Of a DNA stretch of 64,000 nucleotides, positions 3,731 to 45,330 are shown one piece after another; positions within the stretch are counted from its first letter, which is position 1; each line of letters begins with the position of its first letter. The notes beneath the pieces were generated by a model. The model did not search any database and had not been told where the DNA came from. It was given only the letters and a program-made list of their open reading frames with translations. The stretch covers positions 832,001 through 896,000 of the forward strand of contig CAWFAK010000007.1 in assembly GCA_963813715.1 (NCBI GenBank). The letters run 5' to 3'. The DNA is from an uncultured Planctomycetaceae bacterium (GTDB lineage Bacteria > Planctomycetota > Planctomycetia > Planctomycetales > Planctomycetaceae). The translations under genes were made by a program, and so were the position numbers.

Positions 3731-3920
3731 AATCTCAACCGTTTCTTGCCATTCCGGTTAATCAACCGATAAGTGCCGCCGTGACAGGCACCGGAAACTC
3801 ATCCGTTTTTCGCCACTCGCTCCGCGTCCCGAAAACTCATACGTTTTGGCGGAATCCGGCCTCAAGCTGTGAGAGCGAATCAAACGCTCGGACATCGGCG
3901 CAGAATTTCGAACGTTTTTG
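3731..3920 (+). repeat. Island repeat copy R1 (boxes A-B-C-D)
   Basis: AATCTCAACCGTTT / AACTCATCCGTTTTT / AACTCATACGTTTTGGCGGAATC / TTCGAACGTTTTT. Confidence 0.9.
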
Positions 3921-4069
3921 ACAGCGACAGGAATCCAAATAAAGTGCTTGACCGTCGCCCACCGCGGGATTCCAATCTGGGTGGGTAACGGCTCCCGCAG
4001 TGACAAGACGATCGCAACTGCGAACGCCAGAAACACCTAAGTCGTGGTTCGAGCTGGAGTCGGCTATCC

Positions 4070-4705
4070 ATGGCGATTTGTTTTCCCAGGCGTCGAGTTC
4101 TTGGCTTGCCGGCCTGGTTGTGGGTCGTGTTGCCGATCCCCCTTCTGGCGCTAGGAAGTTCGCTGTGGATGTTTTGGCTTCCGTCGAGCCTCGATGAGCC
4201 GCCTGAGAGAGCCGAAATCTTCCGCGACCTCGTCCTCATCACCCGCCAGGGGGAGACTTGCCGGTTCGTGCCCTTCAGCGAGCAGAAGGGAGTGAAGCCG
4301 CTCTGGACCGTCAGCGTCATCACGAGTGCCAGATACAACCTCAAATGGGACACGCGGCACTACCTGCCGGGGCTTTTCCGCAGGCAGGCAAGTTGGACCT
4401 ACGAGTTGACGGCGAACCGCTTCGATCCCGACTGGAAAGATGACAAGCTGAACGCACTCACCTTGCCCGCGGAGCAAATTCGCCTGCTCCGGCCGCTCAT
4501 CGTCGCCGAAATGAATCGCCGCGACCCGGCGGCCCAGCGCGGAGACCGCCTCGAACGATTGCTAAACAATGGTTTTGAGGAGAAGTCGTCGTTCTGTCCA
4601 CAAAACGCGGTGATCGCGTTGGGGTGGCTTTCCGTGCCGTTGGCCTTCGTCGGCCTTTGTTCAATGTTTGTTCGCCCACGCAGGGCTGAAGTCCGGGCAC
4701 AGTGA
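4070..4705 (+). CDS. Hypothetical membrane protein with N- and C-terminal hydrophobic helices
   Basis: 211-aa ORF preceded by GGAG; hydrophobic segments at both ends; sole gene between R1 and R2. Confidence 0.7.
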   Translation: MAICFPRRRVLGLPAWLWVVLPIPLLALGSSLWMFWLPSSLDEPPERAEIFRDLVLITRQGETCRFVPFSEQKGVKPLWTVSVITSARYNLKWDTRHYLPGLFRRQASWTYELTANRFDPDWKDDKLNALTLPAEQIRLLRPLIVAEMNRRDPAAQRGDRLERLLNNGFEEKSSFCPQNAVIALGWLSVPLAFVGLCSMFVRPRRAEVRAQ

Positions 4706-4899
4706 CCCGTCGATGCCTCCGATGCCGCCACCGGCGGCAAAGCATGCTGATGAGTGTCGCTCAAGTCGGCTCTTGCCGCAGCACTTGGCTCACGCGAGTC
4801 GACTTCCGCCTCACGGAAAACTCCTTCCTTGTCCAACTCCGTTCAGACTGGGGAGACTTGGGACACTCGAACTCCAGAATCCGGAGGCCGTTTCTCAGG

Positions 4900-5094
4900 A
4901 ACTCAAACGTTTTCTGTGACGGCGAAAATCGACCGTTTGACGGGAGCCGCCGCTTGCCTCGTCCCGGATTCACATACGTTTTGTGACGCACGATTTTCGT
5001 GCCGGGAACTCAAGCGTTTTGTGAGAATCGCTCTTGACTGAATGATGGCCGCGGAATTGGGTTGAAGGGCAGCGCATCAAACGAACGTTTTTCG
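4900..5094 (+). repeat. Island repeat copy R2 (A-B-C-D, diverged)
   Basis: AACTCAAACGTTTTC..GAAAATCGACC / TTCACATACGTTTT / AACTCAAGCGTTTTGTGAGAATC / ACGAACGTTTTT. Confidence 0.8.
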
Positions 5095-5288
5095 ATTTGA
5101 TTCTATCCGCCCGCACGGGGCTTTGCGGATGACGGGAGCAAGCTCCGACCAGCAAGAAATCGCGGTCCCGTCCGAACTACACAAGAACGGCTTCCGGCTG
5201 TGTCGGAATGATGTTGTGCCGCCGTCCAGACGTTGGCGCGCTGCACGGCGGTCTTATTTCAGTGCGTGAGCGGTGGATGCGCCGGTCT

Positions 5289-6859
5289 TCAGGGTTTAGC
5301 GCCGGTCTCGGGCGTCGGCGGTGCTGGTGTCGCTGTGAGCTGGTGGTTGGCGACGGCTTGGGCGGGATGGCCCAATGCGTGATAGAGCCGGAACTGCGCT
5401 CGATCGTAGTCGGCAATCGCGCCGTAGTAGTCGGCGTAAGCCTGCGCCAGCGCCTGCAACGAGGCCACTGCTTCCTGGGGCCGAACGACGAGCACGACCA
5501 TGTTGCCGACCGACCTCGTTTGGCGCAAGCCTTCGAGGTTCTTGTCGGCGGAGTCGACGGCGTCTTTCAGTTCTGCTTCGGCTTCGGTCTGGCGAATCGT
5601 TGCCGAGCGGACGCCGGCGTCAGCCTTCACGACCTCGGCCGCGACGCGATCTTGAAGTCGACTGAGTTCCAGGACGGCGACTTCGTTCTCGGCCTGTCGC
5701 TGCCGCACGAGGGCATAATTGCCGAAACCCAGCTCCTTGAGTTCCCACAACACGGTGACATCGTAGTCGAAGCGTCCGCCGAAGTTGCTCAGGTCGTCGT
5801 TGGTGCCGCCGCCGAAGAATCCGCCCGCCAGCGTTCCCGTGGCAGACGTTGAGGTTCCGCGCGCAGGATGCTCGGCAAGAAGGGTCGCATTTTTTCTTGG
5901 CGGATTCGCGCCAACGTCGACTGCACCAAGGCCTGCTGACCCGAGAGTTCCGGCCGGTTCGTCAGGCCCATCGTCACGAGTTCCTCGACCGGCTGGTCCG
6001 GGGCGACGAGGGTCACCTGCAGATGGGGAGGTTCGACGGGCTCGGCAACCGTCGTCGCGTCCAGCCGCAAGACACGCATCAAGTCGGCGCTGGCAGTCCG
6101 CCACCGCTCGTGCGCCAATGCGACCGCTTGTTGGCTGCGCCGGGCCTGGGTCCGCGCGCGGACAACTTCCAGCCGAGGCACCAAACCTTGAGAGAGCGCC
6201 TGGACTCTCTGAACCAGGCTGTCGGCACGCCGAGCCACATCTTCAGCGCTGGCTAGGTCGCCTCGCGCTTGCTGCACGGTGAAATACGCTTCCGCAACTG
6301 CCAAGAGACTGTCGTTGCGAGCCGTTTGCAAGGCGGCATTGCGCGCCTCGACCACTCGGCGCGCGGCCAGCGGTTCAAAGATTGCGTCGCTGACGGCAAA
6401 CACTGCGTACGGACCGGCTCCGACCATGAACGACTGTTTGCTCGCGGGAGCAACATCCCCCTGCACGTCCTGGATCTGTCCGTCGTGACGAGAATAGTCG
6501 GGACCGATCATAATGGTCGGGAGCCACAACAGGTTGGCCTGCGTCAATTGAGAAGCGGCCACCTGAATCTGTTGGGAAGCGACCGCGACGTCGATCGGCT
6601 GCACGCCAGCGAGTTGGAAGGCCGTGGCTAAATTGATCGGGAAGGGACGATCGGCCCAGGGCGCGACGGGCTGATCGGCCGGCCCGCGATCAGAGGGCGG
6701 CGCGGGGGCCGGGTCGAACGATGCCACGATCTTCCCGGAGTACGACGTCTCTTGGGCGCGGACGGACGCGCTGGTGCCAAACAGCAGTGCGGCGAGCACT
6801 GCCCAGGCACGAATCGACGTCCAGGTACCGCGTTCCACGGTCCCTCCGGTGAACAGCAT
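5289..6859 (-). CDS. TolC-family outer membrane efflux protein (frameshift near 5860)
   Basis: Signal peptide, LAVAEAYF, NRPEL, YDRAQFRLYHALG; last gene of an RND operon. Confidence 0.85.
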
Positions 6860-6993
6860 CCCCTTAGCGCGCAAGAGCCTACGCAATCATTAGGTTCGGT
6901 AGAACCGGTCGTCTCGATGCTGGCCAACGGACAAACTGGCAGTGCGCCGAGGTTGAGAGGCGGCCGAGAGCCGGCAGAAGCTGCGCAGCTTTC

Positions 6994-8261
6994 CTACTTG
7001 TCGGCTTGGATCGCGCGCACAGATTGCCCATTTGCAAGGGGGGCCGGGCTGGAAACCACGATCTGCTCGTCCCCGGAGATCGGTATCCAGTGTCCCTCTG
7101 CGGCGGGCGATTCGGGCGTCTTCTGTAACATCAGCACTTCGATGAGTTCGCCCCCTTTGAGACCAATTTGCAAAGGCGTGCGAATCGCCTTGCCGTTTTG
7201 GACCCGGTAGCAGACTGCCTGATTTCCTTCGGTGAGGATGGCCGCGTCGGGCACGGTCCAGACGTTGGCGTGCTGCACGACAATGCTCGCTTGAACGTAC
7301 ATGCCAGGCAGCAGTTTCCCCTGCGGGTTCGGCAGGTCGATTTCGGTGCGAAGCGTGCGTGACCGCGGATCAAGGGCCCGCGCGTTGCGGGTGACCGTGC
7401 CGTGAAGCGGCTCTCCTCCCGCGCCCTGCACCTGGAGGCTGACCGGGTCGCCGTCCTTAATCCACGGGGCATCGCTGCCCGGGATGTTGACAAAGACCCG
7501 CACCGGATCGATCTGACTCAAGACAAACAGGGGCTGACGCGTGGTGCCTGTCGCTGGCTGCACAAAATCCCCCACGCTGATGTTGCGCTGCGTGACGACG
7601 CCTTTGTAGGCCGCCCGAATCTCCGCGTATTGCAGCATGGTCCGAGCGTAATCGCGGTTGGCCTTGGCGACTTCGAGCTGCGCTTCGGCCGTGGCTTCGT
7701 CCGCCTTGGCCTTCACCACGCCGGCTCGAGCGGCCTCGAATCCCAGCTGGGTCTCGTCGACATTTTCCTGATCGAGAACGCCGCTCTTTCCGACTCGTGA
7801 CAGCCGCTCATACTGAGATTGTGCACGCCTGAGTTGAGCGTCGGCCGTGAGGATGGCCGCCTTGGCTTGTGCGACCTGTGCGGCCGCGTGGCGAACGGCG
7901 GCCTGCTTCTGCTGCACTTCGACCTCCATCTCGGGGACGTGCAGCACGGCCAGAATCTGGCCCTCTTTCACATAGTCACCGATGTCCGCGTTCCATTTTT
8001 GCACGTAGCCGGTGATGCGGGCGTAAATCGACGTTTCCTGGAACGGCTCAATATTGAATCCCGGCTGCTCGAAGGGATGCAGCACAGTCTTTCGCTCCGG
8101 TCTGACAAGGCGCACCGTCTGTTCGGCCGCCGCCGATGGCGCCCCGCTTGCGCCAGTCTTGGACGCGCTCGGCAAGCCCTGCTCGCAGCCCGTCAGGAAG
8201 GCCGCGACAAGGACGCCGCCGATCAGACGAAGTGTTACGAGGCGCTACTCACGGCTGACAT
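6994..8261 (-). CDS. RND periplasmic adaptor (MFP), lipoprotein; probable indel near the 5' end
   Basis: IYARITGYV..DIGDYVKEGQIL lipoyl-like motif, coiled coil, LLPGMY; LTGC lipobox upstream of the called ORF; ATG at 8261 is out of frame by one base. Confidence 0.85.
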
Positions 8262-11200
8262 GGTTCCCTTGCTGCCGATCGCAATAGGGGCTGCCTGCGT
8301 CGTCCGGATCGAGCGAGGCCGACTGGACGCCGGCCCGTCCTTGGAACATCACAAACATCGCGGGCAACACAAGGAGCGTCGTAATCATGGAACCGGAGAG
8401 CCCCCCGATGACCGCCCGCGCGAGCGGGGCCGTTTGCTCTCCGCCTTCGCCGATTGCCAAGGCCATCGGAATCATGCCCGCGATCATGGCGCAGCTGGTC
8501 ATCAGAATCGGACGGACGCGGTGCCGGGCGCCGTCGATCGCCGCGTCGTTCGCGGCGGTCCCTTCGCGTCGCGCGCGTTCGGCAAAGGTGACCAAGAGGA
8601 TCGCGTTGGCGACCGCGACCCCGATGGCCATGATCGAACCCATAAACGATTGGATGTTGAGCGTGGTCCGCGTGGCCCACAAGACGAGCACGACGCCGGC
8701 AAGCACGGCCGGAATGGTGCACACGACCGCCAGCGCCAAGCGGAACGACTGAAAATAGGCTGTCAGCAACAGCAGGATCACGATCACCGTCAACAGCAGG
8801 CCGGCCGTCAGGCCCTCATAAATTTTCCCACCGGCGAGCGCTCCGAACATTTGCTGCATCGGCACAATTTGGCCCCGCACGTCGACCGTCGCACCGCGCG
8901 GGACCTCGCCGGCTGCCTGCAACGCCTGCGAAACTCGGCGCGAAACTCGGCCCAGGTCTTCGCCTTCGATATTCGCGGTCATGCTGATCAATCGCTTCAT
9001 GTTGTAGCGATCATATTCGCCCGGTACCGTCCCCTCGTGAATTCGCGAGACATCCTGCAAAAAGACCTGTCCGGCATGGTCCATCGGGACGCCCGAGCCG
9101 CGTCGGCTTCGTCCAGAGCCCGTATTCGTGCTTCCAATGGGCACCACGCCGATTTGCGCGGCCGAGTCCATGCGGGCGATCGGAATTTCCACCTGCACCT
9201 GATAGCCGATGCCCGTGTTGGAGTCGCGCCAGTAATTCGGCACAAGGAACCGGCTGGAAGATGTCGCCGCGACCAGCGAGTTGGCGACTCCCTGCGCCGT
9301 GATGCCGCTCGCGCCGGCCAGTTCGCGGTTCACAGTCACTTCGACCGCCGGATAGTCCTGGGACTGAACGAAGTGCAGGTCGCGGAGCGACGCGATTTTT
9401 TCCAGCTCCTGCCGAATCTTGTTGGCGAACGCCTGGTTGTCGGACATTTTCGGCCCGCTCACCGCGATTTCAATCGGCGTGGGCGAGCCGAAACTCATCA
9501 CCTCGTTAACGATATCGGCCGGCTCGAACGAGAGTTTGATCCCGCGCACTCTTTGAGCGGCCACCTCGGTTGAGACCTTTTCAGCCGCCAGTTTCTCGCG
9601 CAGCGAGTGCTCGAGAATATCCGGCAGCTCGTGACGCAGGTCCTCCTTGAGTTCGGCCACATGCACGCCGCTGCCTGACTTGAGGGCCACGCGCAGCACG
9701 GCCTCTTCCGGTCCGCTCATCCACAAATACACGGTGTTGATCGGATAGCTGGAAGGGATCAGCCCGACGTAGCCGAGCGAGATCGCCACGTTGTCCGGCC
9801 GAACTTTGTTCTTGATCGCGTTGAGTGCCTCGATCGCGAGCTGTTCGGTGACCTCGATGCGGGTGCCGGTCGGTGCCCGCAAGCGGAGCTGGAACTGCCC
9901 CGTGTCGACGGTCGGAAAAATCTCCCGACCGAGTTGCCCGCCGGCAAACCAGACCAGCCCCACGGCCGCCGCCAAGTAGATCGGCACGCCGACCCAACGC
10001 AGCGGCATCAGGCTGCGCACGAGTGCCGTATAGGCCGCACTCAGTCCGCCGCGCTCGCGGCCGGAGTCCTTTTCATGGCTTGCTTGCGATTGGTGCACGT
10101 GCCGCAGCAGCCAGACCGACACGACGGGCACGAACGTGCTCGACAGAAAATAGCTCGCCACCATCGCAAAGCCGACCGCCAGCGAAAGGGGCACAAACAG
10201 GGCCCGCGCCGAGCCTTCCATGAAGAACGACGGGATGAAGACGGCCAGCACGCACAGCATCGCCAACAGTCGCGGTACCGCCGTTTCATGATTTCCGCGC
10301 CGGACCGCGCGGGCGATGTTGGGCGTGTGCTCAAACTGCGTGTGGATGTTTTCGACCTCGACCGTTGCCTCGTCGACGAGAATGCCGACCGCCAGCGCGA
10401 GCCCGCCCAGCGTCATCAGGTTGATCGTCTGACCCGTCAGCCATAACCCGACGATGCTGCTCAAAAGGGCAAACGGGATATTGAGCACGACCACGATCAC
10501 GCTTCGCCAGTCGCGCAAGAACAAGAGCACCATCAGCCCGGTCAGCACCGCTCCCAACAGGGCTTCCGTGCCGACGCCCCAAATGGCCCGCGTCACGTAC
10601 GGGGACTGGTCGAACTCGAAACTGACGTCGATGTCTTCCGGGACAGCGGCCCGCATGTTCGGAAAGGTTGGCCTTCACGGCATTGACCACGGATAGAGTC
10701 GACGCGTCGGCTCGCTTCGTCACCACGATGTAGACGGCCCGTTTTCCGTTGACGAGCGCATAACCCGTCGGGATGTCGGTGCTGTCTTCGATCGTGGCCA
10801 GGTCGCGTAGGTAGACGTCGGTGCCCGGGCGCACCGGAATGCTTCCCAGATCCTTCGGATTCACGACCATCGCGTCGACGGGCACGATGGGCATTTGGTC
10901 CTTCACCCGGATGTTCCCGGATGGACTGATGGTGTTCCCGGTCACCAGCGCCTGAACGACTTCCTCGGGCGAAATGTTGTAGGAGCGCAACCGGTCGGGG
11001 TCGGTGCGGATCACGATCGTTCGCTGGTTGCCCCCGAACGGCGGCGGGGCCGAGACCCCCGGCAGGCTGGCGAACATCGGCCGAACCTTGAACAGAGCCT
11101 GATCCTGGATCTCGCCGATGGTCTTCGTCTTGCTCGACAACACCAGATAGCCGACCGAAACGTTGCCCGTGTCGAAGCGCATTACAAACGGCGGCACCGT

Positions 11201-11566
11201 GCCCGGCGGCATGAAGGCCCGCGCCCTGTTCACGTAGCCGATGGTCTCGGCCAGGGCCTGCGCCATGTCGGTGCCGGGGTGGAAGTAGAGCTTCATCAGG
11301 GCGGCGCCCTGGATGTTCCGTGATTCGACGTGATGAATGCCGGAGATGTAGAGGAAGTGATACTCGTAATAATTGGTGAGCAGGCCCTCCATCTGCCCGG
11401 GGTCCATCCCGCCGTAAGGCTGCGCCACATAAACGACGGGCAGATTGAGGGAGGGAAAGATGTCTACCTTCATCCGCGTCACGGCGAGGCCGCTGCCGAC
11501 CACGACCGCGGCAATCCCCACCATGACGGTGATCGGATGACGCAGTGCGAAGACGATGGGATTCAC
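8245..11566 (-). CDS. RND efflux permease, AcrB/CusA superfamily (frameshift near 10660)
   Basis: [42 protein letters not shown]. Confidence 0.92.
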
Positions 11567-11644
11567 GAAACTGAGATCCCGGGCCGGTGGCTTGATGACG
11601 GATCCGCCGGCATTCCCTGAGCGCGGACAGAAAACGCAGATTCC

Positions 11645-12046
11645 CTAGGCCTTCTTTGCACGGTCGTTTCTTCGCGGCCTGTGGGCTTGTGGTAAATTCC
11701 GTTTCCGTCGCAAGGCACGAAACGGCTCGTCCTTGTCCTCCAAAACTTCCGAGACGAGCTCCAAGAGCTTCTTTCGGGCGTCGGCGAGGACTTGTCGTCC
11801 GGCGCTCGTCGCCTGGTAATACTTCCGCTGCTTTCCGGCGACCACTTGGTGGCGGCTCTTCAGGTAGCCGAGTTCCTCCAGCATATGGAGCGTCGGATAC
11901 AGCGTCCCCTGGCTGAGCCGGTACCCGTGCCGTACCAGCTCCTCGGTGATTTCGGCTCCATAAATCGGCTCCTTCGTCGCGTGATAGAGGATATGCAGAC
12001 GAATGAAGCCGTGAAAAAAATGCCGTGTAACCGGATCATGAGCCAT
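11645..12046 (-). CDS. PadR-family transcriptional regulator
   Basis: IRLHILYHA..PIYG, LSQGTLYPTLHMLEELGYL, RKYYQAT..GR. Confidence 0.9.
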   Translation of the reverse strand: MAHDPVTRHFFHGFIRLHILYHATKEPIYGAEITEELVRHGYRLSQGTLYPTLHMLEELGYLKSRHQVVAGKQRKYYQATSAGRQVLADARKKLLELVSEVLEDKDEPFRALRRKRNLPQAHRPRRNDRAKKA

Positions 12047-12195
12047 AGTGTTGAACTTCGATGTTGATTTCCGACATAATATCGCGGCGACTTTGAGCGC
12101 GGCAAGTGGCGCTCCCGGGAAGAACCAAGGATTCACGCTTCGCCGACCGAGTCGACTTTCGATAGACCGCAGAACAGCTCCAAAGGGAGAATGTC

Positions 12196-12768: not shown

Positions 12769-13010
12769 TTGGGCGGAACGTTTAGCCGAGCCCGGCGTGC
12801 CGGCTTGCTCTTGAGTTGGCCCGACCGGTCCGTTCAGGCTAATTGGCGAAACAAGGTCGCCTGCAAGATCTCGGCTAGGATGTGGTGCCAATTCAACCAC
12901 GCAATCGCTCTAACTCCAGTTCACACAGACGTGCAGCGCGACGCGAGCTGCGACCCACTGGGTCTCGGCCGCGGCAGGCCAATTCGTCCTTCGCAGCTGC
13001 CGGTCGCCCG

Positions 13011-13139: not shown

Positions 13140-13221
13140 ACGGCGTCCGCCGGCCCACATTCGACGTGACCGACGTCCGATCAGCGCGATCGACTGGGGC
13201 GAACCTAGTTGACGATTGTTG

Positions 13222-14115: not shown

Positions 14116-14153
14116 TCGAGCTCACAGTCTGGTTCGGAGGATCCCGTGGCATT

Positions 14154-37065: not shown

Positions 37066-37112
37066 CGGTCATCTTCATTAAGACAACGACGCCGTGGGCG
37101 AGGATCTTTTGA

Positions 37113-38486
37113 ATGAACCGCCAAACCGATCGCCCAACCATCCTGATCGCTGACGACGATCCGACGATTCGACGCAACCTCGCGATGCTGCTTCAGTCAG
37201 AAAAGTTTGACGTTCGCGAAGCGGCGGATGGTCTTCAAGCCGCCGAGGCGTTGGCGACCGGCTCCATCTCGCTCGCGCTGCTGGATCTGAACATGCCCGG
37301 CCGCGACGGCATGGACGTACTTCGCGCGCACGCGGACCACCTGGAAGAGACGCCGGTGATCGTGATTACGGCCTACGGCGGCTCGAGCGCCGCCATCGAA
37401 GCAATGAAGCTCGGCGCTTACGACTACATCACAAAGCCCTTCGACCTCGATGAAGTACTGTTCACGATTCGCCGGGCTCTGACCCAACAGGCGCTCATCG
37501 CGCAAGTCCAATCGATGTCGACCGAGAATCCCCGCATCGTCGAGGTTCAATCAGACGACGAATTAATCGGGCACAGTGCGGCCATGCTTCACGTCTTCAA
37601 AACGATCGGCCGCGTCGCGACGACGAGCGAACCCGTGCTGATCGCGGGCGAGAGCGGGACGGGCAAGGAGCTGGTCGCGAACGCCATTCACCGCAGCTCG
37701 ACGCGATCCGACAAGCCGTTCATCAAGGTCAATAGCGCGGCGATCAGTCCCGCGCTTCTGGAAAGCGAGATGTTCGGGCACGAGCGGGGCGCATTTACGG
37801 GAGCCGTCGCACAGCGCGTCGGTCGCTTTGAGCAAGCGGACGGCGGCACCTTGTTCCTGGATGAAATCGGTGACATGGACAGGGAACTCCAGGCTAAGCT
37901 GCTGCGTGTTTTGCAAGCCGGACAATTTGAGCGCGTTGGCGGTCAGCAAACGATCCAGACCGACGTCCGCGTCATTTCTGCGACCAACCGCGATCTGGAA
38001 GCGAAAATCGTTGAAGGAACTTTTCGCGAGGACCTGCTCTACCGACTCAACGTCGTGACCATCCACTTGCCGCCCCTTCGCGAGCGCCGCGAGGACATTC
38101 CGTTGATAGCAGAACACGTCATCCGGCGCTTGGCACGCAAATACGATTGGCCGCAATTGGCCCTTTCGGAAGATGCCGCGCGACTACTTTCGACACGTGC
38201 TTGGCCTGGGAATGTCCGAGAGCTGCAAAATGCTCTCGCGCGGGCGGCGATCCTTTCGCGAGGACGAATAATTGAGGTGACCGATCTTGAACTCGAAGCG
38301 AACCGCGCAAAAAGTCAGCCTGCGGCTGCATTCGCGTTGCGCGACATTCTTGCGGAGACGGAGCGTCGCGTGATCGGGCAAGCCCTTGAGCATGCGGAAT
38401 GGAATCGCACCAATGCCGCGAAACTCCTGGGCATCAGCCGTCGCCAACTCTTCGACAAAATTCAACAATACGGCCTGCAAAAGTAG
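37113..38486 (+). CDS. Sigma-54-dependent response regulator, NtrC family
   Basis: [29 protein letters not shown], Fis-type HTH. Confidence 0.95.
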
Positions 38487-38687
38487 AGTTTTCGTGAATC
38501 AATCAAACACGGTTAGAGTTGATTGCCGATGGCAATCGATTTGACCGTCCATGAAAGACCAGGGATGGCGGACAGGCAGATCGCAAGTCGCCTGTTGATC
38601 CTTTGCACAAACAATCCAGCTGGAGCCCGACCGTTGTGCCGGCTATAACCAGCATCTCGAGGACAATGGAGCCCGGGGAGTGCTGGC

Positions 38688-38879
38688 GTGGATCGGGTCG
38701 TGACTTATCTGGAGGCGATCGAAGAGATTAGCCGTACCCAGCGCCGACACAAGACAAGCAACGACGCGAACACTTTGGCGCAGCTCGAAAGTGCCCTAGG
38801 TGTCGCCAAGGCGGCCTGGCTGCTGATTCCAAACGAGTGGCAAGCGCGACTGCATCCACCGCCGGAGCGCACGGACTAG
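38688..38879 (+). CDS. Possible small hypothetical protein
   Basis: GGGGAG before GTG; helical-looking 63 aa ending in HPPPE; no family recognised. Confidence 0.35.
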   Translation: MDRVVTYLEAIEEISRTQRRHKTSNDANTLAQLESALGVAKAAWLLIPNEWQARLHPPPERTD

Positions 38880-39160
38880 GCAGTAGCCTCGATCGGCCGG
38901 CACGACCTAAACGTGCTGCAATCCTTGTTTCATCTTCTTCGATTGCGGTTTTCGTCTGTTTGGGTCGTTCACTGGGACCCGATCAAAGCCCGCGTCGCCT
39001 TCCGAATCGGCGCCGGCAGACCGTCCCGGGCTGCGATGACACGTTGCAGATCAACATCAGGCACACGATTGTCTCACTCGCGCGCGGCCTGGCTTCCGTA
39101 CGAACACTAGTAGCCTGATGCCAGAAGAGGATTGAACAAAAAGCGCCTTACAACCCTCCC

Positions 39161-39391
39161 CTAGGACCTGCAATCGATGCGAGCGTCCGTATCGAGCGGC
39201 TCGACGGAAACCCGAAATCCCGCCGAAATGAAGTCGCCGGGAAGCTTGGCAATTGCACCCAATGCGTCGTCCCGATTCTCAAAAATCTGGGCATTCGTCT
39301 GCGTGCCAAGCGCTCGCTCGCCGCCACTGTTAGGCGCCGTGAGCCAGAACTTTGCGCCAGTGGAAGTCGTGGCCGTAACCGCGAATCGCAT
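39161..39391 (-). CDS. Small hypothetical protein, paralog of 3296..3571
   Basis: GGAGG upstream of ATG; ungapped similarity to 3296..3571. Confidence 0.7.
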   Translation of the reverse strand: MRFAVTATTSTGAKFWLTAPNSGGERALGTQTNAQIFENRDDALGAIAKLPGDFISAGFRVSVEPLDTDARIDCRS

Positions 39392-39629
39392 TCCTGGGCC
39401 CTCCGGTCAAATGCTGATCGCCCCAGCATGGGTGCGAAGCGCCCTGAAATCAAGAGGTGCTTTTCGGGTTGCTTATCCCACAACGACAGGCGAAGGACCA
39501 CCTAACCGCGACGCGTTAGCATCGAACCGCGTCGATTCGCACCCGTCCGATTCTTTGGAAAGTCATCGGGGGCATCGCTTTTGCTCTAGGGAGACCGGCG
39601 GCGTTCGGTCGAGGCAGGAGTGGTCAAAA

Positions 39630-41165
39630 ATGACGCCCAAGGAAACGAACCCCGTCCGGTGGACGGACGAAGAGCGATGGCAGTTCTTGATGGAGAACGT
39701 CAAGGACTATGGGATTTTCATGCTCGACCCGGAAGGCAGCATCGTCACCTGGAGCATCGGGGCCGAACGCATCTTAGGCTACAAGGAAGAGGAGATCCTG
39801 GGCCGCAATTTTTGTGAGATATTCACTTCTCACGACGTCAGCAAGGATCAGCCGAGGCTCGAGCTATCCGAGGCCCGTCAAAAGGGCCGAGCCGAGGATG
39901 AACGCTGGCACGTTCGCAAGGACGGCTCGCGTTTTTGGGCAAGTGGAGTAGTGAGTCCCCTGTGGGACGATCACGGATCGCTGCGAGGCTTCGCCAAAGT
40001 TCTTCGCGACATCACCGAACGCAAGCGGTATGAAGACCGAATCGCCGAAGAGAACCAGCGGAAGGACGAATTCCTCGCGATGTTGTCGCATGAATTGCGC
40101 AATCCGCTAGCCGCCATCTCCAACGCGGCGCGTCTACTTAGGCTGGAACAAACATCGTCCACCGTGGACGATGCGGCCAGCATCATCGAGCGCCAGATCA
40201 GCGGGTTAGTTGAGCTGGTCAATGATCTGACCGACGTTTCGAGGATGACGACCGGTAAGATCCAGCTGCATGTGGAACGAGTTCAGTTGAATGACGTCGT
40301 GAGCCGAGCTGTCGAATCGGTTCAGCACGTTTTGGGCGAGCGCCATCATCAGCTTGCGATCTCAGTCCCCCACGAAGCGATCTGGGTCAACGCCGACGCA
40401 AATCGATTACAGCAAGCGTTAGCAAACGTACTGAACAACGCGGCCAAATACACCGATCCTGGTGGACGGATTAGCGTGGCCGTGGAACGGCTCGGGAATG
40501 AGGCGTTCGTCAAGATTAAGGACAATGGGACAGGGATTTCGGCGGAGATGTTGGATCGCATTTTCGAGCTCTTCATTCAAGCCGACCGATCGCTTGACCG
40601 TTCGCAGGGAGGCTTGGGCATCGGTCTCGCTCTCGTTCGTCGATTAGTCGAGATGCACGGTGGCAGAATCCAGGCATTCAGCGCTGGCAACGGTCAGGGC
40701 AGTGAATTTGTCATCCGGCTGCCGGTTGTGCCCGAAGTAACCGCACCGGATTCCCAAGCACAGAGTGAGCCCATTGCTCCAGGCAAAGAACTGCAGCTCG
40801 TTTTGGCGGAAGACAACCGCGACACTGCGCAAACAATGGCGTTGCTCCTAAAGGGATTGGGCCACAAAGTCCGCGTCTTTTACGACGGCCCGGCGGCGCT
40901 TCAAGCAGTGCAGGGCAACAAACCGGACGTTTTACTTCTCGATCTCGGCCTTCCTGGGCTAAACGGTTTTGAGGTCGCCGAGCGTGTGCGGCAAGACCGG
41001 GCGTTGGACACTGTTCATCTAATCGCCATTTCTGGCTACGGCCAGTCCCAGGATCGCGAGCGATCGCGAGCGGCCGGATTCGAACGCCATTTGGTCAAGC
41101 CCGTCAGCCTCGAACAAGTTCAGGACGTGTTGAGCCAATTGATCGGGGAAGAAGATCAAAAGTGA
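39630..41165 (+). CDS. Cytoplasmic PAS-domain hybrid histidine kinase/response regulator
   Basis: AGGAG RBS; PAS (DYGIFMLDPEG..RKDGSRFW), LSHELRNPL, GGLGIGL, C-terminal REC. Confidence 0.93.
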   Translation: MTPKETNPVRWTDEERWQFLMENVKDYGIFMLDPEGSIVTWSIGAERILGYKEEEILGRNFCEIFTSHDVSKDQPRLELSEARQKGRAEDERWHVRKDGSRFWASGVVSPLWDDHGSLRGFAKVLRDITERKRYEDRIAEENQRKDEFLAMLSHELRNPLAAISNAARLLRLEQTSSTVDDAASIIERQISGLVELVNDLTDVSRMTTGKIQLHVERVQLNDVVSRAVESVQHVLGERHHQLAISVPHEAIWVNADANRLQQALANVLNNAAKYTDPGGRISVAVERLGNEAFVKIKDNGTGISAEMLDRIFELFIQADRSLDRSQGGLGIGLALVRRLVEMHGGRIQAFSAGNGQGSEFVIRLPVVPEVTAPDSQAQSEPIAPGKELQLVLAEDNRDTAQTMALLLKGLGHKVRVFYDGPAALQAVQGNKPDVLLLDLGLPGLNGFEVAERVRQDRALDTVHLIAISGYGQSQDRERSRAAGFERHLVKPVSLEQVQDVLSQLIGEEDQK

Positions 41166-41730
41166 CCGCTGCCACGAAAAAATGCCTCGATGTCAGGACT
41201 CTGAGTTCACTTTCACCTTGCCCCTCTGTCCAAGCGCTCTCCACGTCCTAATTCAAGCAGGTCCTTCACATCGTTCTTGGTACGATGCCTAGTTTCCGAA
41301 TTGCGCTTGACGATGGACCTCGAAGAGGGAGGACACTCTGGTCGCTCCTTCGCAATTAGCAGAGGGTGGGGCGAACCTAGCGCCAGGGAGAAATCGTCGC
41401 GGCGACCGAACTGTGTGGCGCGCTTGTGGAAAAGCGGTGCCGGGACAGATGAGGCTGTCAGGACTGATCCTGTGCACTTCATTCGACCGGCCGGCGTGTT
41501 GAGCCAGCCATCGACGGCTCGCCGGACTTGGCACCGAGGTCTTCGATCGGCGGATAGTGGAGAGCGAGGGATACGACGACGCGCTGCGGCATTCAGGCTA
41601 ACTCAACCGCTTTCCGCAAACGCCAACAAACGCGAGCCAAGAACTCGCACCCGTCCCCCCCCGCGCCGCAGCCCAATGGCAATCGCACCGCGTAAGCCGC
41701 GCACGATCACTTTGCTTTGTGCTGGTCCAC

Positions 41731-41768
41731 AATCTCAAGCGTTTTCTGCGGACGCCGAAAATCGACCC
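41731..41768 (+). repeat. Island repeat R7 (box A only)
   Basis: AATCTCAAGCGTTTTCTGCGGACGCCGAAAATCGACC. Confidence 0.8.
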
Positions 41769-41796: not shown

Positions 41797-43074
41797 TTAG
41801 AGGTCTGGCGGAGCGACCTCGAAGCAATCGATGCCGAAGTCGCTCCCTGTCGACTTCGGGCCCTTGCCCACGATCTCGAACCGGATCATATGCCGGCCGG
41901 CCTGAAGACTCTTGGTCGTCAGGATGACGCGTCCGCTGGCGATCGGCCTGGGTGCGTAGAGATCGAGGAAGTCACCCAGGCGCTCGCCGTCCAGCGATGG
42001 TTGAATCCGGCCGAAATCCGGGGCCATCGTCAGGTAAACGCTCAGTTGATATCGGTCCGTCTTCGCGATTGGCAAGGCGAGGACCAGTGCATCTCCGGGT
42101 TTCCCACCGACATGGAGCTGAGCGTCACCACTCCAATTGGCCCGGCCGAACTCCTCCATGCGCTGCACGTTAGTCCGGACCCCGCTTCGCTCGACGATCT
42201 CAGCGGTCTCGGCCTCCAGCGGAGATCTCCATGCCAGTTTCGCTGTCAACAGCATCCCGGATTGCAGGCGCCGCTGGACGAACCACCTCACGATTTCGAC
42301 TTGCTGCCGCGAGAGCGTCTTCGAGGAGTTGTACCAGTATCCCATGATGTTCTTGCGATCGAACGTGATTCTTTTTCCCTCGAGGACGACGCTCGACGCC
42401 CGATCGCACTGAATGGCTCTGATGAATGGATCCGGCGGCGTGTCCGAGAGGCCGTCCCCGTCGAAACTGGACACCTCACCGTGGTGATCCCTCAGCCACG
42501 CATCGGCCTGGGCGACGGTCTCAAACTCTCTTGCGAAGGTATGCGACAGCCCCAGGTAATGACCGACTTCGTGCGCGAAGACGCCGATATTCTGCCTCCC
42601 GCAAATGGTCGTCACCTCGAACCCAGGCATCACAACGAAGTCGTAATCAACCCACGAGAACCCGCCACCAGTGGGTCGAGGGCCGGGTCCATGGCGGAAG
42701 ATCAACGTCAGCTTGCCGGAGTGCTCGGCCGCCAGCTGATTGCCCGCCCGCTTGAATTGAAGCCAATCGCGGTCGCCGGTGCCGGTCGGATTGTTCAAGA
42801 GCGTGCTTTTCCGCTCGATCATTCCGTCGGATGTCTTGTAGAGGAAATGAATTCCTGTGGAGGCGTAGACTTGATTTCCGCGGTCGACCCACCGCTTGAC
42901 CTGGGCCGGGGAGATCGCGGCCGGACGCCCGCCATCGTCGTCCGAGACTCGCACCGCCAGAATCGGGACGGTTGCCCGAAACAACGCGCGATCATCGGCC
43001 GTTTCGGCCAATAGCACCGCGATCGCCAGACCCACCACTGCGTGCACGGCCGTCCTCGGATTAGGAACCGACAT
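41797..43074 (-). CDS. Exported M43-like (metzincin) zinc metallopeptidase with a C-terminal beta-sandwich domain
   Basis: Signal peptide; HEVGHYLGLSHTF; DGLSDTPPD; NIMGY Met-turn. Confidence 0.85.
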   Translation of the reverse strand: MSVPNPRTAVHAVVGLAIAVLLAETADDRALFRATVPILAVRVSDDDGGRPAAISPAQVKRWVDRGNQVYASTGIHFLYKTSDGMIERKSTLLNNPTGTGDRDWLQFKRAGNQLAAEHSGKLTLIFRHGPGPRPTGGGFSWVDYDFVVMPGFEVTTICGRQNIGVFAHEVGHYLGLSHTFAREFETVAQADAWLRDHHGEVSSFDGDGLSDTPPDPFIRAIQCDRASSVVLEGKRITFDRKNIMGYWYNSSKTLSRQQVEIVRWFVQRRLQSGMLLTAKLAWRSPLEAETAEIVERSGVRTNVQRMEEFGRANWSGDAQLHVGGKPGDALVLALPIAKTDRYQLSVYLTMAPDFGRIQPSLDGERLGDFLDLYAPRPIASGRVILTTKSLQAGRHMIRFEIVGKGPKSTGSDFGIDCFEVAPPDL

Positions 43075-43273: not shown

Positions 43274-43428
43274 GACTCAAACATTTTCTGGGAACCCCGG
43301 GCACCCGAAACTCATCCGTTTTTCGCCACGCTGTTCCGCGTCCCGGATTCTCATACGTTTTGGCGGAATCCGGCCTCAGGCGGCGAGAGCGATCAAAACG
43401 CCCTGAAATCGGCGGCAGAATTCGAACG
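43274..43428 (+). repeat. Island repeat copy R8 (A-B-C-D, box D cut)
   Basis: Highly similar to R1 over about 125 bp: GAAACTCATCCGTTTTTCGCCAC..CTCATACGTTTTGGCGGAATCCGGCCTCA..GAATTCGAACG. Confidence 0.9.
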
Positions 43429-43560
43429 GGCCTGTTGAAAAAGGGCAAATAATTGTCGTTGTTCAGCCTCACCGACTTGATCGGCCACACCCCAAGCCGC
43501 TCCTGGCGTAGAACTTCGGCCTCCCCGAATCGGCCTTCGACGGGTTCGCTCCTGATCGAT
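43429..43560 (-). mobile_element. Possible IS1182/IS5-type right-end remnant
   Basis: GGCCTGTTGAAAAA end-like sequence; minus strand RSEPVEGRFGEA...PFFNRP resembles the C-terminus of those transposases. Confidence 0.4.
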
Positions 43561-43850
43561 TGGCCTGGAAGCGATCGCGTCTCCTCATTGTCGTCGGGTG
43601 GCCCACTATCAGATCGCACGTCACAAAGTCGTCGGCCCCCGGAAGAGTGGGGGATCCGATTCAGCCTGAGGGGCCATTCAATCGTCGAGCCGCAGGCAAA
43701 TCGATCCAGTTTGTTTTGCTTTTTCGTATCCATGTTGTGACGAGGTTGCCCTGCTGAGCGAATCACAGAGTGTAGTGAACTCAGCGATGGGAATGGGCGA
43801 TCGCGATGCAGGCTCGACTCGCACCATGTAAGCCCGATGAACTGGCGACT

Positions 43851-44378
43851 ATGGACCCGCCGGCCTCAGACCACGAACACTTTCTTTCGCTTTTGGAATC
43901 CCACCAGCGGCCATTATTCAAGGTCTGTTGGACGTACGGCAGGACGTCGCACGATCGAGATGACTTGTTTCAGGAAATCGTCGGGCGGCTGTGGACATCG
44001 TTTGCGAAGTACGACCGCAGTCGCAAGTTTTCGACATGGATGTATCGCGTGGCGCTGAACGTCGCAATCGACTTTCGAAGAAGGCAGCAGCGATGGGGAA
44101 GGGAGACGAGCCTCGACGAAGGCGGGGCGGCAGTTCCAGCCGAGGCACCTGACGACGCGACGAAGCGACAACAATTGCGTGAGCTGCGAGAGCTGTTGGA
44201 GCGACAACGCGATGCGGACCGCGCCATTCTGCTCTTGTACCTGGAAGGACACTCGTACCGCGAAATCGGCGAGGTCCTCGGCACGAGTGAATCGAACGTC
44301 GGCACGCGTCTGAACCGCCTGAAGACTTCGCTTCGGCAATCCGTTCAAGGGCCGTCAGACGAAAAGGGAGACGTGTAG
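43851..44378 (+). CDS. ECF RNA polymerase sigma-70 factor
   Basis: DDLFQEI, FSTWMYRVALN, YLEGHSYREIGEVLG.SESNVGTRLNR. Confidence 0.93.
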   Translation: MDPPASDHEHFLSLLESHQRPLFKVCWTYGRTSHDRDDLFQEIVGRLWTSFAKYDRSRKFSTWMYRVALNVAIDFRRRQQRWGRETSLDEGGAAVPAEAPDDATKRQQLRELRELLERQRDADRAILLLYLEGHSYREIGEVLGTSESNVGTRLNRLKTSLRQSVQGPSDEKGDV

Positions 44379-44380
44379 CG

Positions 44381-45082
44381 ATGCAGTTCGAAGAATTGCA
44401 GCAAGAATGGCAAAGGTTCGATCAGAAGCTCGATCGTTCGCTGGCCCTGCAGGCCGAAGTTGTGCGCCGAGTCGTGATGCAGCCAGCGCGCCGTCGCGTC
44501 AATCGCTTCGCGATTTGGCCCGTGATTGACCTCGTGTTCTGTGCAGTTGGGCTCCTGCTCGCAGGGTCCTCTCTTGGCAAGCATTGGCGCAACTGGCAGG
44601 TTGCGGCGCCTGCAATCGTAGTCATGATCAGCGCCATCGCACTGGCGGCCAGCAGCATACTTCAGCTCCAGCGTGTGGCTGAGTTGGATTGGTGTGGACC
44701 GGTCGCCGAACTCCAGACTGCTCTGGAACGACTTCGGACCACGAAGATTCGGCAGTTCAAATGGATCATCCTGTTTTCGCCGTTCGTCGGCTTCTGCGCA
44801 TTAATGGTGGGACTGCACTGGCTCTTCGAGTGGTTGTCGGATGACCGCGTCCACATCCTCGACAAGCTCGATCCGCGGTGGATCGTCGCCAACTATGTCT
44901 TTGGTCTGCTGTTCGTGCCGCTGGGCTACTTTGTCGCCCGTCGTCTCGCAGAGCGGTGTCGTCGTCAGCGATGGTGGCAAACGGCACTCGATGATATCTC
45001 CGGAAAGAGCCTCAAGTCGGCGGCTCGCGATGTGGATCGTTGGGCGAGCTTGCAGGACGAGGCATCTAATCACAGCGTCTGA
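44381..45082 (+). CDS. Membrane protein, probable anti-sigma factor
   Basis: Directly follows the ECF gene; MQFEELQQEWQ N-terminus; four hydrophobic helices. Confidence 0.75.
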   Translation: MQFEELQQEWQRFDQKLDRSLALQAEVVRRVVMQPARRRVNRFAIWPVIDLVFCAVGLLLAGSSLGKHWRNWQVAAPAIVVMISAIALAASSILQLQRVAELDWCGPVAELQTALERLRTTKIRQFKWIILFSPFVGFCALMVGLHWLFEWLSDDRVHILDKLDPRWIVANYVFGLLFVPLGYFVARRLAERCRRQRWWQTALDDISGKSLKSAARDVDRWASLQDEASNHSV

Positions 45083-45291
45083 GACATGACGGCATCCGGC
45101 TTGATCGCCGACGCTCGCCGGTGAAGTAGAGCCGGAGGGTCTGCCCCGCGATTTTGCGATTACGGGACCGGTCTAGCATTTTCTGCGTCAGTTTCAGAGA
45201 TCTGCCAACGCTCTCGAAGTGATCCGCCCGCGGCGTCAACAGTGGGTCGATCGAGACATCGAGCGCGCCCGTAGCGCGTTTAACGTCACAG

Positions 45292-45330
45292 AATCTCATA
45301 CCTTTTCGCGGACACGCCAAAAAAGGACCC
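45292..45330 (+). repeat. Island repeat R9 (box A only)
   Basis: AATCTCATACCTTTTCGCGGACACGCCAAAAAAGGACC, close to the starts of R3 and R6. Confidence 0.85.

Follow-up and report, generated by a model that had tools for sequence, protein, structure and literature searches.

The source genome of this study (G000, 82.6% complete by markers) belongs to a soil planctomycete and contains strings of gene modules with one composite repeat between the modules. We analyzed a 64-kb stretch of its contig C7, referred to as the window. The repeat is a modular element of 40–200 bp that comprises a box A, optionally followed by boxes B, C and D. With at most one mismatch the motif WCTCAWMCGTTTT matched 16 times in the window (0.48 expected), in all 16 cases on the + strand, and none of 100 shuffles reached this number. 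TCGAACGTTTT occurs twice (0.05 expected). The whole genome holds 78 box motif matches, 16 of them in the window.

An HMM was built from eight full copies and applied to the window and to regions of same-genus genomes (the genus set comprises 12 genomes, among them the relatives G002, G003, G005, G009 and G011). All nine copies listed in a preliminary description were recovered in place and on the + strand, and the HMM search likewise found none at 46–64 kb. The up to four related boxes per element described there are seen as an A-B-C-D layout in the full copies at 3731, 4900, 28207 and 43274 (the latter with a truncated box A). The copies at 13011 and 23210 are of the A-C-D type, and those at 22425, 25677, 41731 and 45292 consist of box A only. 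The matches in the window are:

96–137 (C7:832096–832137), +: weak box-A-only copy (nhmmer E 0.0049 and E 0.47)
2706–2743, +: degenerate box A, overlapping the 3' end of a VIT-family gene; left joint of the 2744 cassette (weak HMM match 2714–2756)
3727–3922, +: full A-B-C-D repeat (HMM positions 3–199, E 3.5e-54)
4894–5095, +: full A-B-C-D repeat, divergent subtype (HMM positions 2–199, E 1.3e-09)
13008–13141, +: A-C-D repeat without box B (HMM positions 4–44 and 105–200)
22421–22461, +: box A of module 3, exchange point at the 3' end of the box (G009 alignment)
23199–23341, +: A'(B-like)-C-D repeat behind a recombinase gene (HMM positions 51–201)
25675–25716, +: box-A-only copy with a clear dyad, CCGGAAAATG-AC-CAATTTCGGG (HMM, sequence)
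28202–28395, +: full A-B-C-D repeat (HMM positions 2–199, E 6.2e-49)
41601–41632: weak second box-A-like stretch
41727–41767, +: box-A-only copy (HMM)
43277–43428, +: truncated box A, then B-C-D (HMM positions 11–191)
45288–45329, +: box-A-only copy, the final one in the array (HMM)

The divergent subtype at 4894–5095 is also present in G002, G003 and G009 (86–95% identity). The G009 counterpart of 13008–13141 carries A-linker-B ahead of the matching C-D.

Gene modules between the repeats

The modules of the array were assigned by Pfam unless stated otherwise:

2744–3767, unstranded (ORFs on −): 2744 cassette, small ORFs including pieces that appear histidine-phosphatase-like from an RHGE motif seen by eye (not a family match), with its own box A at the end; 96.5% duplicate at C6:9659–8486
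5256–12856, −: module 2, TolC-like OEP, HlyD-type MFP, RND pump and PadR regulator; cytochrome-like ORF on +
13142–22420, −: module 3, DUF47/PhoU-like protein, RND pump, MFP, sigma-54 response regulator and histidine kinase
23605–25623, +: single-gene module, CarboxypepD_reg + redoxin/AhpC-TSA protein
25724–28208, +: M20 peptidase and UPF0126/glycine-transporter-family membrane protein
28555–41165, unstranded: 13-kb block, no repeats inside; two MFS transporters, CitMHS transporter, metallophosphoesterase, OB-fold repeat protein, two-component systems and PAS hybrid kinase
41797–43074, −: single-gene module, reprolysin-like metallopeptidase
43298–45328, +: ECF sigma/anti-sigma cassette with leading B-C-D and trailing box A; 97.5% duplicate at C5:4287–6314
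45361–49420, +: multicopy block with JAB-like and ThiF/E1-like pieces, beginning 31 bases past box A

A reading of the split RND, MFP and sigma-54-activator genes as pseudogenes was rejected; the breaks are 1-bp assembly errors.

Several modules have counterparts in the relatives. The 2744 cassette has one to three copies per genome in G002, G003 and G009, with a differing upstream module at each of four aligned junctions and several downstream partners. Module 2, whose left end lies 160–220 bases past box D, occurs as a block on G002 contig C3 (92%, no repeat nearby) and at 5.55 Mb in G003 (83%, followed by a box A). Module 3 is flanked by repeats at both sides in G009 (88%) and by none in G003 (89%). 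The M20/UPF0126 module was found at 1.345 Mb in G003 (91%), where the neighboring repeat is inverted. From the 13-kb block the CitMHS gene alone has matches in relatives (84–88% in G005 and G011). The reprolysin-like module aligns at 93–96% with G002:C21:74761–76145, the homology to G002 beginning at 41780, and the ECF cassette is present in G005 (92%).

Shuffling of modules at a fixed junction

The same-genus genomes also hold the element in arrays of a single orientation. All 14 HMM matches between C7:815399 and 877329 are on the + strand, as are 12 of 12 at 6.54–6.59 Mb in G003 and 12 of 12 at 4.70–4.77 Mb in G005. The GC skew of C7 shows no sign change along the contig, though it carries copies in either orientation. 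Over two 20-kb control regions the genome aligns collinearly from end to end with G002, the closest relative, at 92–93% identity. The array region is not collinear, and the window modules are spread over the G002 contigs C3, C7, C9 and C21. Module presence and order vary among the relatives.

Across relatives the similarity of modules often exceeds that of the core by far (88–99.8% versus 74–93%). A 6.7-kb module is 99.6–99.8% identical in G002, compared with 92–93% for the core, and a 2.35-kb module reaches 99.6% in G005, compared with 69–83% for the control regions. For module 3 the values are 88–89% in G009 and G003 versus 71–87% (mostly 74–82%) for the two control regions there. Modules are shuffled, and they have moved horizontally between species.

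For a survey of the junctions, 75 box-A sites were compared in pairs by their left and right flanks. Eight pairs have the left flank in common and nine the right flank, while no pair shares both. The switch point lies at the GACC core (...C|GACC...) at the 3' end of box A in all but three pairs, in which the break falls in the linker or in box B. In every resolved pair box A goes with the 5' module and the post-GACC sequence with the 3' module, which means that whole modules move and not the bare repeat. The junction is fixed, with box A inherited together with the 5' module. The test proposed in the preliminary description, whether module presence and absence break at box A, bears out its core inference; some module ends lie elsewhere.

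Individual joints illustrate the position of the break. At box A of module 3, G000 and G009 show one difference across the box and a common end ..CGTTAATCGACC; full divergence sets in directly after the common ..AATCGACC. The duplicate of the ECF cassette ends exactly at ..AAAGGAC. Identity of the 2744 cassette with C6 begins at CGACCG|ATAAATGG, behind two differing box A sequences. In G002 a chimeric site joins one cassette's box A, which runs to ..GGTTAATC, with GACCCAATTG.. of the 6.7-kb module. The 2.35-kb module of G000 and G005 starts at CGACC|GATAAGTGACGC; its right end coincides with no repeat in G000, and in G005 it is located 54 bases ahead of a box A. At the clearest joints only about 8–10 unbroken identical bases around GACC are common to the two box A sequences, and this identity is too short for homologous exchange.

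The crossover-type site, with which box A ends, is a dyad of ~22 bp; its consensus is CCRwwAAwCG-AC-CGATwwryGS. Its column counts in 79 copies are G43 62/C46 79, C42 64/G47 57, A40 78/T49 63 and C34 70/G54 64. Of 80 copies, 79 retain the core ACC, with symmetric arms around it. The same half-site arms recur in boxes A-5', B, C and D (CCGrAAAy / rTTTyCGG) around another centre (TCAWMC). The imperfect inverted arm of box A noted previously is not supported as a hairpin: RNAalifold gave no consensus hairpin for 79 box-A copies (energy 0.0), and box A is conserved in its primary sequence. The copies are not scattered at random, which would have spoken against the preliminary description. They form the single-orientation arrays described above, and no target-site duplications were detected at 10 full copies (longest shared flank word 3.7 on average versus 3.5 in controls). 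The assembled contigs examined contained no credible excised circle or deletion joint.

Recombinase genes of the array and the island

The whole array lies inside a 77.7-kb island (C7:810384–888047). Between the core genes that flank this island the distance is 442 bp in G002, 4.9 kb in G003 and 3.7 kb in G009. The corresponding features in the window are:

1–56047, unstranded: in-window part of the 77.7-kb island (core-gene flanks compared with relatives)
22462–23198, +: Gin-like small serine recombinase cassette (ORF 22560–23438; Pfam Resolvase 1.4e-45)
52210–53829, +: tyrosine-recombinase-like ORF close to the right island end (Pfam Phage_integrase 3.2e-08; NCBIfam Xer-like matches all below cut-off)

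A gene for a large serine recombinase (Resolvase and Recombinase domains) is located at C7:812.4–814.5 kb, ~0.9 kb ahead of the first repeat of the array. Two G002 homologues lie within 5 kb of repeats, and the family was found in only 3 of the 12 genus genomes. Since large serine and tyrosine-like recombinase genes are situated near the ends of the island, part of the variability may be due to island-level turnover. A direct repeat resembling the element was not seen at the island ends, and neither the window nor eight array-flanking loci contained a tRNA/tmRNA anchor. No Rfam family matched in the window, and none of eight Y1_Tnp-like matches is near a copy. A search for an integron integrase (TIGR02249) over the whole genome, at its 82.6% completeness, gave 78 bits at best against a cut-off of 265, and the matches are Xer-like genes elsewhere. 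Together with the lack of an attC-like hairpin, this agrees with the earlier proposal of a system without attC sites.

The small serine recombinase gene between the copies at 22425 and 23210 had been overlooked in the preliminary description. It is positioned inside one repeat copy in the order A – gene – B/C/D. Among solved chains the DNA invertases 4m6f and 3uj3 come nearest (E 5e-42), and by structure-chain comparison the protein is also near the gamma-delta/Tn3 resolvases. The catalytic nucleophile Ser, present in 22 of 22 relatives examined (21 Planctomycetota, 1 Legionella), is replaced by Gly in the source genome, where the position of the relatives' stop codon reads TTA (23181–23183; stop lost).

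In the eight same-genus loci with a match, box A precedes the gene by ~95–150 bp, and the B/C/D boxes behind the gene are conserved in 7 of 11 same-genus loci aligned. In other Planctomycetota lineages two boxes 38 bp apart follow the gene. The A – gene – boxes arrangement also occurs in loci titled Planctomicrobium, Fuerstiella, Thermoguttaceae and unclassified Planctomycetota (62–67% protein identity); a search for the strict box motif beside 37 homologues of other phyla gave no match. The gene is present in 1–3 copies per genome in varied contexts. It was not found in 4 of the 12 genus genomes, including the single-contig G003, which has 46 repeat matches in the regions fetched. According to Pfam, no transposase adjoins the recombinase gene.

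Proposed module exchange and alternative explanations

Based on the junctions and the comparison with relatives, we lean towards an interpretation of the repeats as joints of an integron-like, site-specific module-exchange system, with the enzyme only a candidate. Of the earlier view that they are recombination sites of an integron-like accretion system, the fixed, site-bounded module exchange without target-site duplications is retained, and the link to a recombinase stays a proposal. Each module, from one gene to a 9–13-kb operon set on either strand, would carry box A on its 3' side. A recombinase would pair two sites of the same orientation, with exchange at the invariant (G)ACC of the box A dyad or immediately 5' of it. 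The intervening DNA would be cut out as a circle with one site, which could re-enter at any other site of the same or another genome. Single-orientation arrays would build up in this way. Boxes A-5', B, C and D may serve as accessory binding sites by analogy to a res site, and the linker-plus-B unit behaves like an empty mini-cassette.

Provided that this exchange model applies, we tentatively regard a Gin/Hin-like small serine recombinase as the best candidate for the enzyme. A large serine recombinase at the array head or a tyrosine recombinase are other possible enzymes. The reactions known from small invertases and resolvases are intramolecular; integration, which a net gain of modules needs, is not known for these enzymes.

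The arrays resemble integrons in their single orientation, the site at the 3' end of the unit, an exchange point fixed near the site end, units that are shuffled and common to several species, and persistence without a recombinase gene. In contrast to integrons, we found no IntI tyrosine recombinase, and the site is conserved in sequence, whereas attC is a folded hairpin (R''/L''-L'/R'). Unlike integron cassettes, modules often span complete operons that include regulators; they are 1–13 kb in size and can lie on either strand. There are also the extra boxes B–D, and no attI + Pc platform was seen.

With Tn3 res and Hin/Gin sites the element shares a crossover-type dyad and accessory-type sites with the same arms beside a recombinase gene, and the enzyme is closest to these families. 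The sites are multiplied in island arrays here, compared with one res per Tn3 transposon, which also has a transposase, or the two inverted sites of a Hin/Gin switch; all array copies are in direct orientation. IS26 translocatable units and the Acinetobacter pdif modules are likewise bounded by copies of one element or site and involve conservative, targeted recombination without target-site duplication. IS26, however, uses a DDE transposase, none of which is within the repeat. A pdif site is a 28-bp XerC-spacer-XerD sequence in alternating orientation, whereas the orientation here is uniform and the sites are not dif-like, as judged by eye against the dif consensus. REP/BIME elements with RAYT differ in having a Y1 transposase gene flanked by palindromic units that are often paired in inverted orientation, with neither such a gene nor a hairpin observed at the copies.

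An unlikely but serious alternative derives the repeat by deletion from a ~0.9-kb mobile element (A, recombinase gene, B-C-D; 22421–23341), as a non-autonomous unit of the MITE type. Copies would insert beside or into existing copies, and the genes would be passive and rearranged owing to the repeats present. This would account for the 200-bp element being equivalent to the recombinase unit without its gene, the conservation of the unit over Planctomycetota lineages, the low copy number of the gene in differing contexts, and the occurrence of full, A-only and BCD-only fragments. MITE and IS copies, however, are expected to have terminal inverted repeats and target-site duplications and to be scattered in random orientation; the 10 full copies lack such duplications, and copies cluster in one orientation. 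Furthermore, in every resolved pair the 5' module retains its box A and the 3' module the post-GACC sequence, and modules with ends at the repeat core cross species at 99.6–99.8% identity.

Rather improbable in our view are att-site scars of a large serine recombinase (or tyrosine integrase) that stacks small integrative elements, as in SCC composite or Dehalococcoides ssrA islands, with the Gin-like gene as mere cargo. Such SCC/SCCmec and ssrA tandem islands also have same-orientation direct repeats between stacked modules, and the recombinase at the array head as well as its G002 homologues close to repeats would fit. A dyad with a 2-bp centre presumably matches serine-integrase att sites. 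On the other hand, the recombinase family has a low incidence in the genus, an anchor gene as in SCC-type islands (tRNA, tmRNA or rlmH-type), whose end is duplicated at each joint there, was not found (tRNA and tmRNA: window and eight array-flanking loci), and the island ends have no repeat-like direct repeat. The multi-box repeat also differs from a short duplicated target, and the boxes on both sides of the Gin-like gene over Planctomycetota lineages would be left unexplained.

It is very unlikely that the copies are just dispersed repeats of an ordinary kind within a hypervariable island, with shuffling by homologous or microhomology recombination and no dedicated enzyme. Synteny breaks at dispersed repeat families are common, some breaks do fall in the linker or box B, and full copies provide 150–200 bp at 70–96% similarity. 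Yet A-only joints, with their short identity, break at the same place in independent events; the conserved ACC core with its symmetric arms and the strict orientation in arrays of 12–14 copies argue in the same direction. Cis-regulatory or RNA elements (operator arrays, terminators, 3'-UTR stabilizers or small RNA genes) in incidental positions would be in line with multiple direct, intergenic box copies at 38- and ~70-bp spacing and a co-oriented 5'-side gene at 7–8 of 11 window copies, but are highly improbable, because the copies are + in convergent (13011, 28207, 41731), divergent (22425, 43274) and tandem spacers alike, have neither an Rfam match in the window nor a consensus structure, and would leave the exchange junctions and the horizontal module transfer unexplained.

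Within the site-specific exchange model, Planctomycetaceae might have independently invented integron-like capture by combining a res-like composite site (GACC crossover dyad plus accessory boxes) with a cassette-borne recombinase of the Gin family. We consider this a speculative and rather unlikely proposal. If true, a Gin-family recombinase would excise and re-insert operon-sized modules and carry them across species.

Form and distribution of the repeat

A search of the window with WCTCAWMCGTTTT, allowing at most one mismatch, gave 16 matches compared with 0.48 expected. All 16 lie on the + strand, and an HMM search found no repeat copy at 46–64 kb of the window, so that the same-orientation repeat of the preliminary description, with its empty right-hand end, is borne out. 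Reading and aligning the sites revealed a modular make-up, in which box A is optionally followed by a linker and by boxes B, C and D. Where a copy is named by a single number, it is the position given in the preliminary description.

Boxes of the composite repeat and its copies in the window
Box A, about 40 bp: AATCTCAAnCsTTTTC..(about 10 bases)..CCGAAAAwCGACC
Linker: GATAAGTGCCGCC...
Box B: GGAAACTCATCCGTTTTTCG...ACC
Box C: GGATTGCCATACGTTTTGGCGGAAT...
Box D: AATTCGAACGTTTTT
3727–3922, + strand, full copy
4894–5095, + strand, full copy
28202–28395, + strand, full copy
43277–43428, + strand, full copy with a truncated box A
13008–13141, + strand, boxes A, C and D
23199–23341, + strand, boxes A, C and D
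22421–22461, + strand, box A only
25675–25716, + strand, box A only
41727–41767, + strand, box A only
45288–45329, + strand, box A only
96–137, weak extra copy
about 2706–2756, weak extra copy

The full copies have no target-site duplications, and no Rfam family matched in the window. Since copies occupy tandem, convergent and divergent spacers alike, with genes on both strands, a role as promoter, terminator or untranslated region is argued against.

The source genome (G000; 7.49 Mb, 18 contigs) contains 43 HMM matches to the repeat at E-values up to 1, gathered in a few clusters. The strand is uniform inside most of these, all + at C7:815–877 kb (C7 being the contig of the window) and all − at C7:970–1001 kb; the cluster at C17:385–430 kb has matches on both strands. 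An orientation set by replication was ruled out, because the GC skew keeps a single sign along C7 and yet both orientations are present. At the BLAST level a 209-bp copy found matches in all 11 other genomes of the genus and in none of 29 genomes of other genera. The array regions fetched from the relatives G003 and G005 each contain a run, over 50 and 64 kb respectively, in which 12 of 12 copies lie on one strand. The repeats are thus real and genus-wide. A degenerate pattern scanned across the whole collection gave only chance matches, in unrelated phyla. The portions of the literature available to us on planctomycete gene cassettes, integron-like arrays and mobile or repetitive elements of Planctomycetaceae contain no description of the element.

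Other repeated sequences were observed as well. AAATAATTGCC recurs at window positions 45380–45550 and 43440–43460, followed twice by a TATAAT-like hexamer, and by sequence these occurrences look like promoters where modules begin. A second, unrelated family of about 70 bp has many copies genome-wide on both strands; at 53589–53770 it sits within the 3' part of a tyrosine-recombinase-like ORF. G000 also contains several ordinary multicopy insertion-sequence-like families (1.0–1.5 kb, 98–100% identity; contigs C5, C7, C8, C9, C11, C12, C16 and C17), which are unrelated to the repeat.

Modules and the junction of exchange

The gene modules between the repeats, as listed in the preliminary description, were confirmed with Pfam; one unit had been overlooked, a Resolvase-domain ORF between copies 22425 and 23210.

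Modules compared between genomes and the recombinase ORF
5256–12856, module 2 (TolC/MFP/RND), found in G002:C3 and at 5.55 Mb in G003
13046–22461, module 3 (DUF47/RND/MFP/two-component), found in G009:C17 and at 7.53 Mb in G003
22560–23438, recombinase ORF of 292 codons (Pfam Resolvase, 1.4e-45)

Short-read contigs from three soil runs differ from the window by 1-bp indels at 15956, 16097, 16395, 18052 and 19874, and contigs from up to three runs by further ones at 12781, 12878 and 23566. The splits of the RND, MFP and sigma-54-activator genes are therefore assembly errors. An OB-fold ORF (34179–35462) contains internal tandem duplications of about 330 bp, 70–75% alike, at 34386–35321. A cassette present in duplicate is the ECF sigma/anti-sigma pair, which in G005 lies next to the recombinase.

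Two 20-kb control regions outside the array are collinear with the closest relative, G002 (92–93%), and largely collinear with G003 and G009 (mostly 74–82%). The array region is unlike these controls, its modules mapping to differing places in the relatives; the recombinase unit, the peptidase gene, the ECF pair, the M20 module and the 2744 cassette (2744–3767) have yet other places. Several modules are far more similar than the core. Module 3 shows 88–89% identity in G003 and G009, and the ECF module 92% in G005, compared with 69–83% for the control regions there. A 6.7-kb module (C7:972992–979699) reaches 99.6–99.8% in G002 and a 2.35-kb module (C7:998678–1001031) 99.6% in G005. It is unlikely that these highly similar modules reflect a binning artefact, given that they sit in long contigs whose flanks are unrelated. 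The M20/UPF0126 module recurs in G003 (locus L237, 1345147–1347398) with its adjoining repeat inverted, indicating that inversions at repeats occur as well.

In base-level alignments the switch from shared to unshared sequence falls at one place (marked here by a slash where it lies between two stretches). G000 and G009 have module 3 in common, with a box A differing at one base, and diverge right after ..CGTTAATCGACC, where the recombinase cassette (22462–23198) follows in G000 and linker, B and C in G009. Two copies of the ECF cassette in G000 are identical through ..AAAGGAC and differ afterwards. Between the two copies of the 2744 cassette, agreement begins at CGACCG/ATAAATGG, each copy being preceded by a different box A sequence, and a module common to G000 and G005 starts at CGACC/GATAAGTGACGC, again preceded by different box A sequences. 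A chimeric site in G002 reads as box A of the 2744 cassette to ..GGTTAATC and then as GACCCAATTG.. of the 6.7-kb module. The recombinase cassette starts directly after a variable box A in those eight loci of the genus that have a box-A match.

When 75 box-A sites were compared systematically together with 400 bases on each side, eight pairs had a common left flank, nine a common right flank and none both. Identity continues through box A in the left-sharing pairs and begins at (C/G)GACC in the right-sharing ones. The switch lies at GACC, apart from three pairs that break further right, in the linker or box B. It follows from this pattern that box A goes with the module lying 5' of it, in the manner of an integron attC. 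Ahead of module 3, G000 has A/C-D whereas G009 has A-linker-B/C-D, a difference which suggests that linker and B act like a unit without content that has an ..ACC of its own at the end. On these comparisons the repeats mark the joints of horizontally exchanged modules, with a fixed core.

An 11-bp inverted repeat at the G002 joint past the 6.7-kb module was discarded as part of an inserted IS91-like element and not of the system. This element (Y2 transposase with zinc-binding domain; locus L104 in G002:C7, 3880–9033) is positioned precisely where a box A ends on its 3' side and occurs together with genes for a tyrosine recombinase and a large serine recombinase.

Public soil-metagenome contigs lend excision joints no support: the candidate joints have sides of 21–32 bases or join look-alike C-D boxes. 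They carry no weight either way since such contigs cannot reveal rare variants.

In 79 aligned box-A copies the columns around ACC, which anchored the alignment and is present in 79 of 80 copies, are near-invariant and mirror each other: G43 with C46 (62 and 79 copies), C42 with G47 (64 and 57), A40 with T49 (78 and 63) and C34 with G54 (70 and 64). The site is a dyad of about 22 bp centred on AC within the GACC core. A hairpin resembling attC was rejected, as CG/CC covariation seen by eye failed over 80 copies and RNAalifold found no consensus structure in the aligned box-A copies. The CTCAnnCGTTTT boxes appear to have the same arms (CCGrAAAy / rTTTyCGG) around a different 6-bp centre; box A plus these boxes resembles a crossover site with accessory sites.

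Candidate recombinases and the island

The Gin DNA invertase (4m6f, 3uj3; E 5e-42) comes nearest to the recombinase at 22560, followed by gamma-delta/Tn3 resolvases; no NCBIfam equivalog matched it at cut-off. Of the 12 genomes of the genus, 8 gave a match for the recombinase gene, whereas G003 (one contig), G009, G004 and G001 gave none. In the eight loci of the genus that have a box-A match, box A precedes the gene by roughly 95–150 bp, and in 7 of 11 loci of the genus the gene is followed by a B-like box, C and D. Loci titled Planctomicrobium, Fuerstiella, Thermoguttaceae and unclassified Planctomycetota (62–67% protein identity) have an AAA..GACC box upstream and two boxes 38 bp apart downstream. 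A strict box motif follows the gene, on the same strand, in 8 of 43 Planctomycetota-titled loci and precedes it in 5 of 43; beside homologues of other phyla it was found in none of 37 loci, on either side. As judged from sequence, the link between recombinase and repeat is conserved.

Its absence from the matches in four genomes and the state of the window copy speak against this recombinase as the enzyme. The window copy reads YARVGTEGQ, whereas all 22 relatives examined (21 Planctomycetota and one Legionella) read YARVSTEGQ; the Ser position is GGC (Gly) at 22608–22610. Soil contigs have A (Ser) at base 22608, although in run X1 the G accounts for about 7.5 of the 38.1 depth units. At the stop position (23181–23183) the window sequence has TTA instead of the TGA of relatives, which would extend the ORF into the following repeat. 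Between box A and the recombinase start (22500–22560) we observed a GGGAAC-N17-CGTC motif, which resembles an ECF-type promoter, and a palindrome, GCGTCyAATATCrAGACGC. The palindrome may serve in autoregulation, since its two arms have altered in concert in distant loci (TGTGT..ACACA in L029 and L031).

Another candidate is the large serine recombinase encoded at C7:812.4–814.5 kb, 0.9 kb ahead of the first repeat of the array. Its homologues in G002 are also less than 5 kb from repeats, and the family occurs in only 3 of 12 genomes of the genus. No integron integrase was found and no Y1_Tnp match near repeat copies; a Y2_Tnp search gave no match in G000 or in control genomes and is thus uninformative on absence.

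Core genes lie to the left of C7:810383 and to the right of C7:888048 (window 56048). In G002 they are separated by 442 bp, in G003 by 4.9 kb and in G009 by 3.7 kb. Array, JAB/ThiF block and tyrosine-recombinase-like ORF therefore form a 77.7-kb island in a variable spot, with no evident direct repeat at its ends and no tRNA or tmRNA anchor near the array. JAB-like and ThiF/E1-like pieces, then the tyrosine-recombinase-like ORF, occupy 45361–53660 of the window. They recur as a unit at G002:C7:481–489 kb, and the block has paralogues at C15:23.4–26.8 kb and in G002 and G009. The unit may be a defence-type integrative element.

Proposed mode of module exchange

An ordinary MITE, a pdif array, a tRNA-anchored island, an invertible switch, a res site inside a transposon and an integron each depart from the data in at least one defining feature tested, so that the repeat array is none of these. 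The findings are best explained by integron-like conservative site-specific recombination. Of the module-exchange sites originally proposed, the fixed core at module joints stands; the recombining enzyme and a circle intermediate are what we infer.

If this is correct, bacteria would have a second route to exchangeable gene arrays, differing from integrons in site and in enzyme. It would carry complete operons (efflux pumps with regulators, sigma/anti-sigma pairs, peptidases and defence-like blocks), account for part of the large, flexible genomes of soil planctomycetes and offer a defined, testable DNA site. The small serine recombinase family might then perform module integration, a reaction with which, to our knowledge, it has not been credited. 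Even with a known integrase type as the enzyme, the fixed junction and the near-identical modules, common to species with 70–93% core identity, attest to active horizontal exchange in a phylum that has been little studied.
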